Sequence record: ON075799
Direction: 5' to 3' (one strand)
DNA: 64,000 nt
DNA from: Escherichia phage vB_EcoM_TH18
Shown in pieces: positions 7,420 through 12,769 of this stretch (position 1 is the first letter of the stretch; each line of letters opens with the position of its first letter). The notes under the pieces are model-generated. The model saw nothing but the letters and a program-made list of their open reading frames with translations. It was not told the origin of the DNA and did no database searches. The translations under genes were made by a program, and so were the position numbers.

Positions 7420-7598
7420 AGGTTAAAATGATTTCTGATTTTTCCGATGTTGCTGGATATCCAAAAACAGGAGATATTCTTGAAGTAAGAGAAGAAATCT
7501 TTAATGGTAGTTTTCTTGAGTGTTACTCTTGCGAATGGAATGGGAAAAGACTTGATATCTATCCATACGAATGCGAAGAGGTATCAGACAATGCTTAA
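7416..7598 (+). CDS. hypothetical protein
   Basis: 60-aa ORF, translationally coupled. Confidence 0.4.
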   Translation: MKVKMISDFSDVAGYPKTGDILEVREEIFNGSFLECYSCEWNGKRLDIYPYECEEVSDNA

Positions 7599-8112
7599 GT
7601 ATAAAGTTGGTTGCTTAATAGAGGCAGCACTTAAAAGGGATGTTAATGTGATAGCTCATGGTTGTAATACATTTTGCACCATGGGGTCTGGAATTGCTAA
7701 AGAAATAAAGAATGCATTCCCAAAAATGTATGCTGAAGATTTAAAGACAGAGAAAGGTGATCGAACAAAACTGGGCAGTTATACTTGGGCTGTCATGAAC
7801 GAAGGTAAGCTGGCGGGTTTTAATTTGTACACACAATACGGCTATAATGGGCGTAGAATGGGTGTTAGAGATTTAAATTATAACGCCCTTTACGATTCTT
7901 TAGCAGCAATGCGAGATTGTTTGCAAAGGCACACAGATGGCTTTATGTCTGATTATAAGATCGGGCTGCCAAAAATAGGTGCTGGGCTAGCAGGTGGGGA
8001 TTGGAAAATCATAGAAACTATGATAGAATCTGTTCTCCATGATTGTGATGTGACAATTTATGTTTTAAATAAAGAGGAGATCCCAGATGGCAAAAGAGAA
8101 CATGCATCCTGA
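7591..8112 (+). CDS. macro-domain protein (ADP-ribose binding/hydrolase family)
   Basis: 'VNVIAHGCN...MGSGIAKEI' and 'IGLPKIGAGLAGGDW' macro-domain signatures; ATG at 7591 with GAGG RBS. Confidence 0.65.
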   Translation: MLKYKVGCLIEAALKRDVNVIAHGCNTFCTMGSGIAKEIKNAFPKMYAEDLKTEKGDRTKLGSYTWAVMNEGKLAGFNLYTQYGYNGRRMGVRDLNYNALYDSLAAMRDCLQRHTDGFMSDYKIGLPKIGAGLAGGDWKIIETMIESVLHDCDVTIYVLNKEEIPDGKREHAS

Positions 8113-8281: not shown

Positions 8282-8654
8282 ATCTGTGACAGGCTTATCG
8301 AAAGATACATATATTTGTGGGAAGAGATATGCTGGTATCCTGTTTGGTGCTGAACCCTATTTTGGTTTTGGTTATACAAAAGATGTTCGATGCATTTGTG
8401 GATACTTAGCAGATGATCTCAAAAAGCGTGGATTTAGTGGTTCTAGTATCAGGACTTCTGTTGTCGAAAGTCTGATTATGCACGATGGAGAAATCTATGC
8501 TATTACGATGAACAGCGCCTATCGCTTAGGTAGCCTTCAATTACAACATTTTATCTCCAGTCCTGTGTGGAGTCAGGAAATCACGAAACTTCTTGCCCAG
8601 GCAACTCTTGGTGTGACTTTTATTAATAAGGAAGATAGTAATGCAAGCAACTAA
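8268..8654 (+). CDS. hypothetical protein
   Basis: 128-aa ORF. Confidence 0.45.
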   Translation: MMESKSVTGLSKDTYICGKRYAGILFGAEPYFGFGYTKDVRCICGYLADDLKKRGFSGSSIRTSVVESLIMHDGEIYAITMNSAYRLGSLQLQHFISSPVWSQEITKLLAQATLGVTFINKEDSNASN

Positions 8655-9675
8655 GTACCCAAGCACTAGTCAATTTCGCAATGTTATCCGAGCGGTTAAT
8701 GACCGTCTGACTTATGATGGTCGTGATGAGAATGGCAATATAAAGCGTAAGGTTGCCTCTCCAGATCAATATCTCATTTCTTATGTAGGAACAGTTAAAA
8801 TTCACGGGACTAATTGCCGTGTAGTCTTTAATTCTGAAAATGAGGTTGTATACCAGTCCAAAGAACGCGTTTTGTCTTTGGAGGAAGACAATTATGGGTT
8901 TATGGCCTTTATGGTTGAAAAAGACCATAAACCCCTGCTGGGGCAAGTCAAGCAGATCTGCGAAGATCGGGGTATTGAATTTAAGTTCCCAGTAGAAATC
9001 GCTGGGGAATTTGCAGGGAAAGGTATCCAGAAAGGTGTTGCGGTATCTGAAATCATGCCTTTCTTTACTATTTTCCGTGTTGCAGTGGGGAAAGAAAATG
9101 ACCATCGGAAATGGCTAGCTTTAGACGATATTCTTGGCATTGGATTACCAGAACAACGTATTTATAATATTTTAACTTTTGGTAAGTGGGAACTGGATAT
9201 TCCTTTTAACATGCCAGAGACAGTGCAATCAGAAATTGCACAGATTACCGAAGGTGTGGAAAAAGAGTGCCCAGTAGGTAAATATTTTGGCGTATCTGGT
9301 GTTGGTGAGGGTGTGGTATGGACACCTAAAGATCGTCACTTGGCACATGTTTCTTCACTTTGGTTTAAAGTGAAAGGGCAAAAACATTCTGTCTCTAAAG
9401 TGAAAACCCTAGCTGCTGTTGATCCTGTGAAACTGCAATCTATCAAAGATTTTGTGGAGTATGCAGTTACTGAGAACCGTTTACGACAAGGGTTGCAAGA
9501 AATTGGATTGGACATCGCATCTCTGGGGGCATTTATCGCATGGGTTAACCGCGATATCAACAAAGAAGAAGCAGATGTGCTGGAAGCCAACTCTCTTTCT
9601 ATGAGAGATGTGGCGAAGTTCACAACAAACAAAGCCCGTAGTTGGTATATGGAACAACTTAACGAGGTGTCTTAA
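8641..9675 (+). CDS. RNA ligase, Rnl2-like (nucleotidyltransferase)
   Basis: motif I 'KIHGTN', motif IV 'EGVVW', motif V 'FKVKG'. Confidence 0.7.
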   Translation: MQATKYPSTSQFRNVIRAVNDRLTYDGRDENGNIKRKVASPDQYLISYVGTVKIHGTNCRVVFNSENEVVYQSKERVLSLEEDNYGFMAFMVEKDHKPLLGQVKQICEDRGIEFKFPVEIAGEFAGKGIQKGVAVSEIMPFFTIFRVAVGKENDHRKWLALDDILGIGLPEQRIYNILTFGKWELDIPFNMPETVQSEIAQITEGVEKECPVGKYFGVSGVGEGVVWTPKDRHLAHVSSLWFKVKGQKHSVSKVKTLAAVDPVKLQSIKDFVEYAVTENRLRQGLQEIGLDIASLGAFIAWVNRDINKEEADVLEANSLSMRDVAKFTTNKARSWYMEQLNEVS

Positions 9676-9846
9676 TGGCTTTAATTGTTTCTACAACACA
9701 CACAACTGTAGAACGTGGTATGTTAAAGGCAAAGTGTGACACAATTATTTTTGAAGATGAAGAACAGGGCAGAAAGTTTATTGAAGACAATAAAACATTT
9801 GTGTACTCTGTTCAGAAAGCACCTATTGTTAAAGAGAAACAAAACA

Positions 9847-10188
9847 ATGATTACAATTAATGGTAATACAATTTCTGGAAACTATACCAATGGTAGTATC
9901 TCTATCACTACTAAGGGTGATAATGTATATATCAATGGTGATTTAGTTCACACCACAAGCGATAAAAACATCACAGTTATTATCAAAGGTGATGCTAAAG
10001 AGGTACGTACAACATCAGGTGGTATCAATGTCTATGGAAATGTCTCTAATGGCGTGATCTCAACATCTGGGGATATTAATGTTGAAAAAGATATCTTAGG
10101 CAATGTGTCTTCAGTGTCTGGGGATGTCTGCGCAAATACAATCCATGGAAGTGTGAACACAATATCTGGAGATATTACCCATCGTTAA
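9847..10188 (+). CDS. small repeat protein with beta-solenoid-like periodicity
   Basis: 113 aa of reiterated 'SG(D/G)INV...GNVS' units; start chosen at internal ATG 9847. Confidence 0.45.
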   Translation: MITINGNTISGNYTNGSISITTKGDNVYINGDLVHTTSDKNITVIIKGDAKEVRTTSGGINVYGNVSNGVISTSGDINVEKDILGNVSSVSGDVCANTIHGSVNTISGDITHR

Positions 10189-10202
10189 CAGAAAGCCCCT
10201 TT

Positions 10203-10748
10203 ATGGGGCTTATTTGTCTGGAGTTAGTTTTGAAAATAAGATCTTTATTATTTGCTGTTTGCTGTGCACTTTCTCTGTCTATTACCCCTGTTCTAGCCAA
10301 AGAAAGTGCAAAGAAGCCCAGAGTTCTTCATGTTTGTAAGAAGAACGACACAGAGCTTAATATTCTTGCCTGCAATATGTATAAAGAAGGAAGAGGCGAA
10401 GGCGATTATGGAATGATGGGTGTTGCGTTTGTCACGTTGAACAGAAAGGATGACAAAAATTTCCCTCATACTATCAAGAAAGTAGTTTATCAACTTGGGC
10501 AATTCTCTTGGACATTCGGTGGACAATCCTTTAAAGTCTATGAAAAGGACAGATGGTTGAGAGCTAGATTTTATGCTAAAATCTTGATGAGGTTGCATAA
10601 AGACCACAAAAGTTTATACAAAGCTCTTGACTACACAAAATCAGCAACGTACTATCATGCAACTACTGTTAGGCCATCTTGGGCAAAAGTTATGGTGAAA
10701 ACAGTGAAGGTTGGGAATCATATTTTTTACAAGCATCCTGACGTATAA
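10203..10748 (+). CDS. secreted SleB-like cell-wall hydrolase (Hydrolase_2 family), endolysin candidate
   Basis: N-terminal signal-like hydrophobic segment; 'KEGRGE...GMMGVAFVTLNR...FPHTIKKVVYQLGQFS' SleB signature. Confidence 0.6.
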   Translation: MGLICLELVLKIRSLLFAVCCALSLSITPVLAKESAKKPRVLHVCKKNDTELNILACNMYKEGRGEGDYGMMGVAFVTLNRKDDKNFPHTIKKVVYQLGQFSWTFGGQSFKVYEKDRWLRARFYAKILMRLHKDHKSLYKALDYTKSATYYHATTVRPSWAKVMVKTVKVGNHIFYKHPDV

Positions 10749-10768
10749 CTAGTTCATAGAGGTATTGA

Positions 10769-12769
10769 ATGATTATTCAAAGATCTGACAACAAAGTTCA
10801 GGTAACTGGGAACGTAGAAAGATACCAAGCATCAATTGCAATGAATCCTGAGACGTTCAGTATTCTTATCGACGGAATTTATAAAGATAAACCTTTAGCA
10901 GCAGTACGAGAGCCTCTCTTTAACGCTGTAGATGCCCATACAGAGGCAGGGTGTTCTGATAAACCAATCATCATCCACTCACCAACAGACTTGGAGCCTT
11001 GGTATTCTGTTAAGGATACAGGGTTAGGTATGGATCATGAGATGGTAACACGTACATTCATGATGATTGGTGAGTCCACAAAAAGAAACAGTAATGATCT
11101 GGTTGGTGCGAAAGGTATTGGATCAAAAGCACCTCTTGCAGTCACAGATATGTTCACAGTTGTTTCTGTTAAAGACGGAGTGAAAACAACATATTCTGTT
11201 CACAAAAACAGCGGAATACCAGAGGTTGTACCTTTATTCTCTTGTGAAACAACAGAGGAGAATGGTGTAGAAATTAAATTTAACGTAAACACTTGGGAAA
11301 CAGGAGTTTATCGTCAGGCCATTGTAAAATGCCTTCGCTATGCTAAATTTCCATATATTATTAATGATCCTTTTGTTAAAACGCAGATTGAAGATCGTAC
11401 TTATCCTGTTCAGTATCGTTATGAGGATGAAGAGACTGGCTGGGTTCTTGAGATGTATAGTAGCATGTCGAGCAACGCTGATAGTGTTGTTATCATGGGG
11501 CAACAACCATATCTCTCCGATTATCTCTCAACTCGTAAAGAACTGCCCATGATGACGGTATCTATCCCTATTGGGGATTGTAATGTAGATCCAGGCCGAG
11601 AATGGACAGTGGAAGGAAAGAATGACGGAGGATTCCGTGATAAACTTGAAAATTTTGTGACTAAAGCTATCCGACTCCGCGGAGAAGAAATCACAAAAGA
11701 ATTAAGCGATCTGCCAACTTTAAAAGCAGTTCTTGAACATATGAAGTATGTTGGTGGTTATTTCGCTACAAAGTATGGTGCTGCATTTATTGCAAATAAG
11801 TTCAAGAATTATACTGATGGTTCTTACATAGACCACTGTGAAACATATGGTGGCGAAGGCTCACGCCGTGGTAAGGATGAGAAATATTCATACGCAGAGT
11901 TGATGAATGGTCATCCACTGGTTTACAATGATGATCACAAGTATGTGCGCTCTAAATGTAACTGGCTTGCAGAGAAGTTCGGTAAGAGATCGTTTATAAC
12001 CGATGCTGATTACGCTCTGTCCTTATACAGTGATAAATTCTTTGAAGGGATGATTTTCAAGTTATCTGAGCTTGAAAAACGACCAGTGCAAAAAGCAGAT
12101 AAAAAGTATGGTGGCTATGGTTATTACGAACCTGGTCATAAAGTTTGGATAATTAACCAAGATGGCCTCGTAGATGTAACACGTATTTCCCGTGCTCAAT
12201 TCGAGGATATTGAGACGGCTATGGTCTACTGGGGTGGGCAGGTGAAAGGATTATGCCCGTTAGGATACGTTTCCAATCTTAGAACAGTTTGGAGAAAGCA
12301 ACCACCAACATTTCTTAAGAATCTTGGTGTAGCTGGTAAGTTATATATTGTGCCTTTAAACAGATCAAGTTGGCTGCCAGATGAGGCGCGGGTTATAACT
12401 GAGGAGGATATCCATGCTCTTGCAAAAACTAATCTTCTTGAATATCATTTATACCAAGAAGTTGGGAAAGATCATGAGTATCATAACATTGTTAAAGAGC
12501 TTAGCTATTTTGGTGTGGTGGTAGCTAGTTTCCCAAAATGGGAGATGAAGGTAAACATACCCAGTTATTATTCAGTCCCTGGCTACGAAGATAGCCGTGA
12601 GAAAGCATTAGGGATGATTGAGTCTCGGAAGAGAATTGGTAAAAAGCTGCTACAGATTAAGAAAGATCGCTACCCATTGTTAAAATACATTGATGTTAAG
12701 CATTTCAATACTCCAGAGATGCTAGAGTATCGTAAATTTATTGACAGCAAAGGAGAAAAAGATGAGTAA
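10769..12769 (+). CDS. rIIA: rIIA-like protein with N-terminal GHKL (Hsp90/histidine-kinase-like) ATPase domain
   Basis: Bergerat motifs 'EPLFNAVDA', 'DTGLGMD', 'GAKGIGSKA'; followed by rIIB-like gene. Confidence 0.6.
   Translation: MIIQRSDNKVQVTGNVERYQASIAMNPETFSILIDGIYKDKPLAAVREPLFNAVDAHTEAGCSDKPIIIHSPTDLEPWYSVKDTGLGMDHEMVTRTFMMIGESTKRNSNDLVGAKGIGSKAPLAVTDMFTVVSVKDGVKTTYSVHKNSGIPEVVPLFSCETTEENGVEIKFNVNTWETGVYRQAIVKCLRYAKFPYIINDPFVKTQIEDRTYPVQYRYEDEETGWVLEMYSSMSSNADSVVIMGQQPYLSDYLSTRKELPMMTVSIPIGDCNVDPGREWTVEGKNDGGFRDKLENFVTKAIRLRGEEITKELSDLPTLKAVLEHMKYVGGYFATKYGAAFIANKFKNYTDGSYIDHCETYGGEGSRRGKDEKYSYAELMNGHPLVYNDDHKYVRSKCNWLAEKFGKRSFITDADYALSLYSDKFFEGMIFKLSELEKRPVQKADKKYGGYGYYEPGHKVWIINQDGLVDVTRISRAQFEDIETAMVYWGGQVKGLCPLGYVSNLRTVWRKQPPTFLKNLGVAGKLYIVPLNRSSWLPDEARVITEEDIHALAKTNLLEYHLYQEVGKDHEYHNIVKELSYFGVVVASFPKWEMKVNIPSYYSVPGYEDSREKALGMIESRKRIGKKLLQIKKDRYPLLKYIDVKHFNTPEMLEYRKFIDSKGEKDE

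Follow-up and report, generated by a model that had tools for sequence, protein, structure and literature searches.

The locus described here lies in a window of 64,000 nucleotides (the whole stretch of DNA analysed, one strand, 5' to 3') from Escherichia phage vB_EcoM_TH18, sequence record ON075799. Its central element is a short open reading frame (ORF) for a protein of 113 residues, which is predicted to fold as a free-standing β-helix. The local gene order is a putative phosphatase with a Macro domain, several small ORFs, RNA ligase 2, a 61-residue ORF, the 113-residue protein, a SleB-like hydrolase, rIIA, rIIB and a helicase (Table 1). Over positions 9000-11000 the DNA shows 100% identity with Escherichia phages 18-1-2, 19-1-2 and 24-2-1 and 95.4% with Escherichia phage Av-05 (Vequintavirinae, Avunavirus), in which the GenBank counterpart of the gene, Av05_00151, is labelled a hypothetical protein.

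Table 1. Coordinates, within the window, of the 113-residue ORF, its structural segments and neighbouring features. The rung register was taken from the sequence and the 82-sequence alignment (A3), strand positions (E) from the AlphaFold2 model; invariance refers to the alignment.
Feature	Coordinates	Strand	Remarks
113-residue ORF	9847..10188	+	ATG 9847, TAA 10186-10188; 113 codons plus stop; predicted free-standing β-helix protein, PHROG 3163
N-terminal β-hairpin region, residues 1-41	9847..9969	+	M-I-T-I-N-G ... Y-I-N-G-D-L-V; N5, G6, G11, G31 nearly invariant; strands E2-4, E7-9, E17-23, E26-29, E32-36
Rung 1, residues 42-58: ITVIIKGDAKEVRTTSG	9970..10020	+	strands E43-46, E50-55
Rung 2, residues 59-75: GINVYGNVSNGVISTSG	10021..10071	+	G64, S74 nearly invariant, G75 invariant; strands E59-62, E66-74
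Rung 3, residues 76-92: DINVEKDILGNVSSVSG	10072..10122	+	D76, G85 nearly invariant; S91, G92 invariant; strands E77-79, E86-91
Rung 4, residues 93-108: DVCANTIHGSVNTISG	10123..10170	+	D93, G101, T105, S107 nearly invariant; G108 invariant; strands E94-96, E103-107
Last half-rung and short basic C-terminal tail, residues 109-113: DITHR	10171..10185	+	strand E110-112
Macro-domain protein	7504-8112		Macro domain E 7e-5
RNA ligase 2	8641-9675		phrog_548 E 9.8e-73
61-residue ORF	9675..9860	+	phrog_9816 (annotated unknown function), E 2.4e-30
Terminator-like hairpin	10193..10211	+	AAGCCCC-TTTAT-GGGGCTT, then ATTTGTCT; begins 5 nt past the stop of the 113-residue ORF
SleB-like cell-wall hydrolase	10203..10748	+	Hydrolase_2 E 4.9e-20; signal-peptide-like N-terminus
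rIIA	10769-12769

The ORF differs from its Av-05 counterpart by 12 substitutions, 11 of them at codon position 3, and a single change is non-synonymous (S38N). The encoded protein matches phrog_3163 (annotated unknown function) with an E-value of 8.7e-28 and 97.7 bits, residues 2-113 aligning to profile positions 16-120 of 121. Given this substitution pattern and the profile match, sequence comparison indicates that the ORF is a genuine gene under purifying selection in an Av-05-type Vequintavirinae coliphage. No signal peptide, transmembrane segment or catalytic motif was found in the protein.

Six residue types (I16, G15, T14, N14, S13 and V12) account for 84 of the 113 residues (74%). A first-pass annotation of this DNA had noted reiterated motifs of the SGDINV and GNVS type, and these are present as SGGINV (residues 57-62), SGDINV (74-79), SGDV (91-94), SGDI (107-110) and GNVS (64-67 and 85-88); more generally, T-x-S-G-D-[IV] and G-N-V motifs are reiterated along the chain. 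The same annotation had taken the repeat to be 8-10 residues long. The reiteration is real, but the full structural repeat is 16-17 residues and the 8-10-residue units are half-rungs. In a BLOSUM autocorrelation evaluated against 2,000 shuffles, peaks occur at lags 7 (z 3.4), 16 (z 2.5), 17 (z 2.4) and 33 (z 3.1). There are four rungs, of 17, 17, 17 and 16 residues, each closing in T/S-x-S-G, and then the half-rung DITHR. Tandem Repeats Finder reports no array at the DNA level inside the ORF; the reiteration is ancient and confined to the protein.

The AlphaFold2 model of the protein, computed with the 82-sequence alignment, is confident and all-β (predicted local distance difference test, pLDDT, 87.6; predicted template modelling score, pTM, 0.76), with 14 short strands and no helix, which bears out the earlier guess of a β-solenoid. 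A second family member gave the same architecture. The models lend good support to a free-standing, single-chain, right-handed β-helix, predicted to consist of an N-terminal hairpin region, four rungs of 16-17 residues and a last half-rung, and there is good support for its turns being fixed by the reiterated T-x-S-G-D-[IV] motif. Left-handed helices superpose on the model at no better than about 10 Å root-mean-square deviation; the fold comparators listed include FwdC-type GXGXG helices. According to the model, the nearest folds with good support would be Toastrack/DUF2807 'putative adhesins', bactofilin, CAP/TBCC-type β-helices and the C-terminal β-helix of MinC. By fold, the family is equally close to bactofilin and to Toastrack. 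The likeness to the MinC C-terminal domain and to CAP/TBCC (CARP) β-helices is at the level of fold and is no better than that to many other β-helices; no sequence similarity of the protein to either was detected. A Foldseek search of BFVD returned family members and one entry annotated 'Bactofilin [Myoviridae sp.]' (E 4.4e-5).

In the 82-sequence alignment, an N-terminal hairpin region of the form I-x-I-N-G-x-x-Y-x-G ... V-x-I-D-G-K is followed by rungs with the consensus G-x-V-x-T-x-S-G-D-[IV]. Residues 1-41 of the protein carry this family motif (I-x-I-N-G-x-x-Y-x-G ... V-x-I-D/N-G) and probably cap the helix. The conserved positions (Table 1) are turn residues, the faces of the helix are variable, and no stretch of 7-10 columns is conserved throughout. 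Among 244 family proteins of 100-175 residues, the sequence beyond the last SGD[IV] is a short tail (median 3 residues) that contains K or R in 86% of cases and carries a mean net charge of +1.6.

Searches with family models place the protein nearest to Toastrack, by way of its relatives. On the protein itself, neither the Toastrack model DUF4097 (PF13349; gathering cut-off 22.9 bits) nor the bactofilin model PF04519 (27.9 bits) gave any match at E<=1, and an NCBIfam scan gave nothing. Among 82 relatives, matches at E<0.01 were obtained by 10 to DUF4097, by 7 to Bactofilin and by 4 to FapA. Two relatives exceed the DUF4097 cut-off, P0220 (29.6 bits, 38% identical to the protein) and P0187 (23.8 bits, 28% identical), whereas the best bactofilin score is 23.1 bits (E 8.7e-5) and no relative reaches the cut-off of that model. 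Three relatives are named 'DUF4097 and DUF4098 domain-containing protein YvlB' by the Joint Genome Institute (JGI). Because the cut-off is passed by relatives and not by the protein, its link to Toastrack is only transitive. The DUF4097 matches span only central rungs (model positions 103-187 of 247), which suggests that the Toastrack-specific intertwined N-terminal region is absent. As far as sequence can tell, the most fitting description of the family is a free-standing relative of Toastrack, divergent and truncated, with Toastrack/DUF4097 rather than bactofilin as the nearest family. We regard the assignment of fold and family as highly probable. The fold class itself is already known, and PHROG 3163 already lists the family. 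Three relatives (P0210, P0217 and P0220) carry a precomputed match to PF26811.1, a model that none of the searchable papers mentions and that may already describe the family.

Toastrack (DUF4097 PF13349, with DUF2154 and DUF2807) was defined by Ravi et al. in 2024, 4QRK being among the structures used (PMC11237479). It is predicted to be intracellular and as a rule occurs in fusion with PspC, LiaI-LiaF-TM or another membrane anchor; it has been proposed to offer two large sheets for assembling sub-membrane signalling complexes, and Band-7 proteins and Toastrack are among the reported partners of the phage shock protein (PSP) system (PMC11237479). The viral family shares with Toastrack a single-chain right-handed β-helix with S-G-D-[IV]-type turns, and the 113-residue protein is, like Toastrack, predicted to be cytoplasmic and non-enzymatic. 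It is about half the size of the 247-position Toastrack model. Toastrack is coupled to membrane anchors or PSP/Lia operons, whereas this protein is free-standing and virus-borne, and no psp- or lia-type genes were found among its neighbours.

The family is very large and virus-centred, a conclusion with good support from sequence searches, and is catalogued as PHROG 3163 without a described function. A word-indexed homolog search gave 6 proteins; the family became visible through exhaustive and profile searches. When 1.84 billion cluster representatives were searched exhaustively with HMMER, 1,894 clusters matched at E<=1e-3 and 370 did so at E<=1e-10, most of them 110-150 residues long; a family-profile search of a 5.8-billion-protein set yielded 2,322 matches. 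The first-pass annotation had stated that predicted disorder and a lack of homologs would speak against its proposal; the confident fold and the 1,894 related clusters are the opposite of both. With tblastn, homologs were found in 105 phage records (Klebsiella, Vibrio, Salmonella, Escherichia, Cronobacter, Erwinia, Acinetobacter and Aeromonas phages), including gp242 of Seunavirus PVP-SE1, the jumbo phage GAP32, KVP40-like vibriophages and an Ackermannviridae phage. The gene also has homologs on 36 'plasmids', of which 27 come from Acinetobacter. The ones listed measure about 105-107 kb and are non-mobilizable; given their size, and the presence of the gene in the 102-kb Acinetobacter phage Ab15, the Acinetobacter 'plasmids' are read as phage-plasmids. 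One homolog on an Acinetobacter phage-plasmid is annotated 'FapA family protein'.

The family spans phages and eukaryotic giant viruses. One member, P0161 (L042:7001-7585), lies on a giant-virus-like contig with ankyrin repeats, a PIF1 helicase and an RNA recognition motif (RRM), and the BFVD match A0A3G5AK49 is a Sylvanvirus family member with 32% identity. Bacterial members were found on a Burkholderia ubonensis chromosome, in a Halomonas island and, in a form with a signal peptide, in a Pseudomonas metagenome-assembled genome; the locus search in bacterial genomes used a single narrow pattern and gave 2 loci, which is no measure of prevalence. Viral-contig loci were gathered with a 7-sequence alignment. 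Longer relatives carry transmembrane segments, a zinc ribbon, duplications or extra domains, and a few distant relatives have transmembrane or signal sequences. At E<=0.1, PADLOC-DB gave nothing for the protein or for 7 of the 8 relatives scanned; the eighth, P0017, has a weak 2TM 'Effector' match (E 0.0026) in an N-terminal transmembrane extension, outside the β-helix.

The 113-residue gene keeps company with the same neighbours across its closest relatives. The order RNA ligase, 61-residue ORF, (gp241), the gene itself, SleB-like hydrolase, rIIA, rIIB is retained in Avunavirus, Seunavirus and Klebsiella Vequintavirinae; the element in brackets is a homolog of PVP-SE1 gp241, which in Seunavirus sits between the 61-residue ORF and the gene and is absent from Avunavirus. 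In every lineage inspected the gene's neighbours are of the early or accessory type, and in none is it part of a structural module. The position noted in the first-pass annotation, in an early block beside a SleB-like hydrolase, stands: the gene immediately downstream encodes a Hydrolase_2 protein, and the block is non-structural and of early type. By its annotated content the region upstream is an RNA-repair or ADP-ribose-flavoured accessory block. In the Av-05 annotation a MoxR-type ATPase lies a few genes farther upstream. The rV5 genome and proteome paper contains nothing on the gene.

The 61-residue ORF lies directly 3' of the RNA ligase gene in all Vequintavirinae loci checked. Its stop overlaps the start of the 113-residue ORF by 14 nt, in ATGATTACAATTAA, an arrangement suggesting that the two are probably translationally coupled. 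Were translation to begin at the in-frame GTG 9736, the protein would be longer by 37 amphipathic residues (9736-9846; hydrophobic moment 0.70); this frame is open in Av-05 too. We judged this start unlikely, as it lies in an alternative frame of the conserved 61-residue ORF; the Av-05 substitution pattern in the extension fits neither frame better. The peptide MKNRAKSLLK of the extension also precedes a different gene in a Klebsiella phage locus (L026) and therefore looks like a by-product of conserved nucleotides. The extension is probably non-coding.

Downstream, the terminator-like hairpin has a 7-bp stem with 5 GC pairs (pattern scan) and an RNA folding energy of -16.3 kcal/mol (z -2.4). 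The annotated ATG of the SleB-like gene falls within this hairpin. Starting instead at the in-frame TTG 10230, which has GGAG ahead of it at 10220-10223, would give MKIRSLLFAVCCALSLSITPVLA|KE, a typical Sec signal peptide. From the sequence, TTG 10230 is probably the true start, the annotated one being 9 codons too long, and the hydrolase is probably exported because this start provides the signal peptide. In PVP-SE1 the characterised endolysin is gp146, a gene other than the one for the SleB-like hydrolase (PMC3352856).

The pair formed by the gene and the SleB-like hydrolase is also retained in the metagenomic phages L032 and L036, where the hydrolase is only 33-40% identical. In both of these phages a membrane protein of the SPFH/Band_7 type, 306-314 residues long, is encoded directly upstream of the pair (L032:3017-3937 and L036:3017-3961); this neighbour is confined to the two. 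A fused relative of 294 residues has a Glucosaminidase gene next downstream, and the KVP40-like homolog is located three genes upstream of rIIA/rIIB. The neighbourhoods of the fused or long relatives P0005, P0007 and P0117 show no recurrent link to a hydrolase.

Hints of membrane association come from the N-termini of relatives. Among the 244 family proteins, 114 start directly at the core and 111, about 45%, have a tail of 9-30 residues (e.g. MNIFKSLFG, MFKKFLKGFF, MNFFKKLFS, MKKMFKMFKKK and MDIFKKLQK). A combination of F or W with net positive charge in the first 12 residues is seen in 53 of the 111 tailed proteins (48%), compared with 27% of neighbouring ORFs (odds ratio 2.4, p 8e-4). Seunavirus and Klebsiella-phage orthologs have a conserved MGLRE[WY]L-x-[VA]-K extension, which the Avunavirus protein lacks. 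An amphipathic-helix reading of the tails was rejected, as AlphaFold2 gives a coil at pLDDT 43; such a coil is as expected for a flexible lipid-binding peptide, without confirming one.

We tentatively favour the view that the 113-residue protein is a non-enzymatic protein-binding platform that would be made early in infection and would probably act near the inner membrane. As in its relatives, the β-helix would provide a rigid surface for cytoplasmic protein-protein contacts. The protein would be made along with early or accessory genes and would belong functionally to an envelope-directed block that includes the exported SleB-like hydrolase, rIIA and rIIB. The platform is preferred since the protein has no catalytic features, its turns are conserved and its faces vary, and the only roles of its relatives are those of scaffold, polymer or partner-binding module at the membrane; conserved turns with varying faces would fit a scaffold or decoy adapting to its partners rather than an active site. 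An action near the membrane is preferred on account of the basic-aromatic tails or anchors in many members and the envelope-flavoured neighbourhood in Vequintavirinae. If the protein does act at the membrane, being tail-less it would have to be brought there by a partner or by its own short basic C-terminus. Taken as a whole, fold and family included, this explanation is plausible, though somewhat short of an even chance, and its mechanistic part considered separately is doubtful.

Several observations weigh against the platform explanation. The Pfam scan of the protein gave nothing above threshold, the sole match being FapA (PF03961; E 0.024, 14.7 bits compared with a gathering cut-off of 31). 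The family profile retrieved no solved Toastrack or bactofilin from PDB sequences at E<=1 (its matches to nuclear movement protein and ribosomal protein L6 are weak and were set aside as spurious), and Foldseek with the model found nothing in the PDB at E<=0.001. A putative terminator hairpin stands between the gene and the SleB-like gene. Outside the Vequintavirinae-type subfamily the neighbours are mixed (ClpP, dUTPase, Mom, DHFR, NAPRTase, TerD, antirestriction proteins and phosphoesterases), and no universal partner gene emerged when 32 proteins encoded downstream and 35 encoded upstream were scanned with Pfam. The enrichments in basic-aromatic tails and hydrophobic moment are modest, the protein itself has no N-terminal tail, its core beginning at once (MITING), and the tail of the modelled relative is a low-confidence coil with no helix. 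The functional part is inferred from fold and context and is held with low confidence.

The related genes number in the thousands. In large lytic phages (Vequintavirinae, KVP40-like, jumbo and Ackermannviridae) they occupy early or accessory regions, and Acinetobacter phage-plasmids and giant viruses have them as well. The fold assignment, with its link to Toastrack and bactofilin scaffolds, makes the protein a testable candidate for a factor in phage handling of the host envelope. A more far-reaching version, which we consider speculative and unlikely, is that a virus-specific minimal β-helix self-assembles, or docks on host β-helix machinery, at the cytoplasmic face of the membrane. It might then be a phage 'mini-bactofilin' cytoskeleton or a Toastrack decoy, common to phages, phage-plasmids and giant viruses, and during infection would alter how the envelope grows, how the cell divides or how envelope stress is signalled. 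Should the protein indeed polymerise or hijack an envelope system, it would open a new class of phage-host interaction factors; were it only an adaptor, the assignment would still be a useful annotation for PHROG 3163. Within the window alone, it is an ordinary conserved accessory gene.

Could the protein be a true phage bactofilin, the first-pass annotation having suggested a bactofilin-like fold? Bactofilins (PF04519; structures 6RIA/6RIB) are small cytoplasmic β-helices, similar to this protein in length and rung size, whose core is a compact right-handed β-helix of about six windings. They polymerise without nucleotides and bind the membrane via a short N-terminal peptide with the consensus MFSKKKK, cooperatively in the polymer (PMC12448750). 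Under this explanation, the β-helix units would join at their ends, independently of nucleotides, to form filaments or sheets on the inner membrane, and would reorganise the growth or division of the host envelope or hold phage proteins in position. The sub-threshold PF04519 matches in relatives (best 8.7e-5 and 2.5e-5), the BFVD entry annotated as a bactofilin and a size equal to the bactofilin core are compatible with it, as are the tailed relatives, whose basic-aromatic tails resemble the membrane-targeting sequence, and the C-terminal end of the helix, which has a tail of a mere 3-5 residues and no obvious cap. However, the turns differ by the T-x-S-G-D motif, and where bactofilins have a disordered N-terminal tail this protein has the hairpin region, which would block one end of the helix and permit tail-to-tail dimers at most, with no bipolar stacking. 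The membrane-targeting tail is missing from the protein itself, PF04519 fails on it and stays below its cut-off in all relatives, and bactofilins are absent from the results of the PDB sequence-profile search. No phage-encoded factor of bactofilin or Toastrack type is described in the literature searched. Membership of the bactofilin family gains no backing from the family models, and we consider a phage bactofilin unlikely.

The conserved neighbourhood would also be explained if the protein were a dedicated partner of the exported SleB-like hydrolase (a cytoplasmic holdase, export escort or inhibitor) or of rIIA/rIIB. It is encoded directly upstream of the Hydrolase_2 gene in all Vequintavirinae loci examined, and the pairing persists in the two distant metagenomic phages although other flanking genes differ; the fused 294-residue relative precedes a different type of peptidoglycan hydrolase, and the KVP40-like homolog is close to rIIA. 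Most other lineages, however, have no hydrolase nearby, and L032 and L036 belong to the same subfamily, so that the pairing may be mere inheritance. In addition, the hydrolase has a signal peptide and the protein has none, which would put them in different compartments, and a terminator-like hairpin separates the two genes. A dedicated partnership appears rather improbable.

As a third alternative, the protein might be a decoy that binds a host sub-membrane β-helix system, MinC/MinD or a Psp/Lia-type sensor, and so blocks division or blunts a stress response. Among the first 25 Foldseek matches listed, MinC in the MinCD complex was the only one with a probability above 0.5 (0.75). Toastrack domains are tied to PspC/Lia signalling (PMC11237479), and variable faces on conserved turns would suit such a role. 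The Foldseek scores are nevertheless no better than those for unrelated β-helices, there is no sequence similarity to MinC, and family members are found in giant viruses too, which infect hosts without MinCD or Psp/Lia-type systems. E. coli PspC is not known to have a Toastrack domain. A decoy of this kind seems quite improbable.

A part of the virion (a short fibre, spike or baseplate β-helix) is very improbable. It is suggested by a match of residues 13-106 to phrog_430 (baseplate hub and tail lysozyme; E 0.0013) and by homologs labelled 'tail protein' (GAP31) and 'putative baseplate hub subunit and tail lysozyme' (an Erwinia phage). The triple-stranded β-helix of T4 gp5 type has short repeats rich in Gly, Val, Ser and Asn in common with this protein, and the weak phrog_430 match is explained by repeat composition. 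In gp5 the helix is formed by three intertwined chains within a large virion protein, whereas the 113-residue chain is folded by AlphaFold2 with high confidence into a helix of its own. It has none of the attributes of the gp5 type (large virion protein, trimeric helix, structural module): the gene lies among RNA ligase, rIIA/B and nucleotide metabolism genes, and homologs occur in phage-plasmids, bacteria and giant viruses. A role in a fibre or in the virion finds no support. Finally, that this is a chance ORF in low-complexity DNA and the overlapping upstream ORF the real product, as the biased composition and the 14-nt overlap might suggest, has negligible probability in view of the third-position substitutions, thousands of homologs, PHROG family and confident fold, and because the 61-residue ORF is a separate conserved family sharing just those 14 nt, so that the two are not alternatives.

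One subfamily of relatives shares the MITING start of the protein and has an insert of 50-60 residues (KSMKDYIKEQAEKGEVLENV...). It comprises P0037 (L009:798-1682), P0117 (L046:435-1322) and P0003-P0007. Some of its members have an extra C-terminal domain of about 115 residues, without a Pfam match, and one has a Glucosaminidase gene next downstream.

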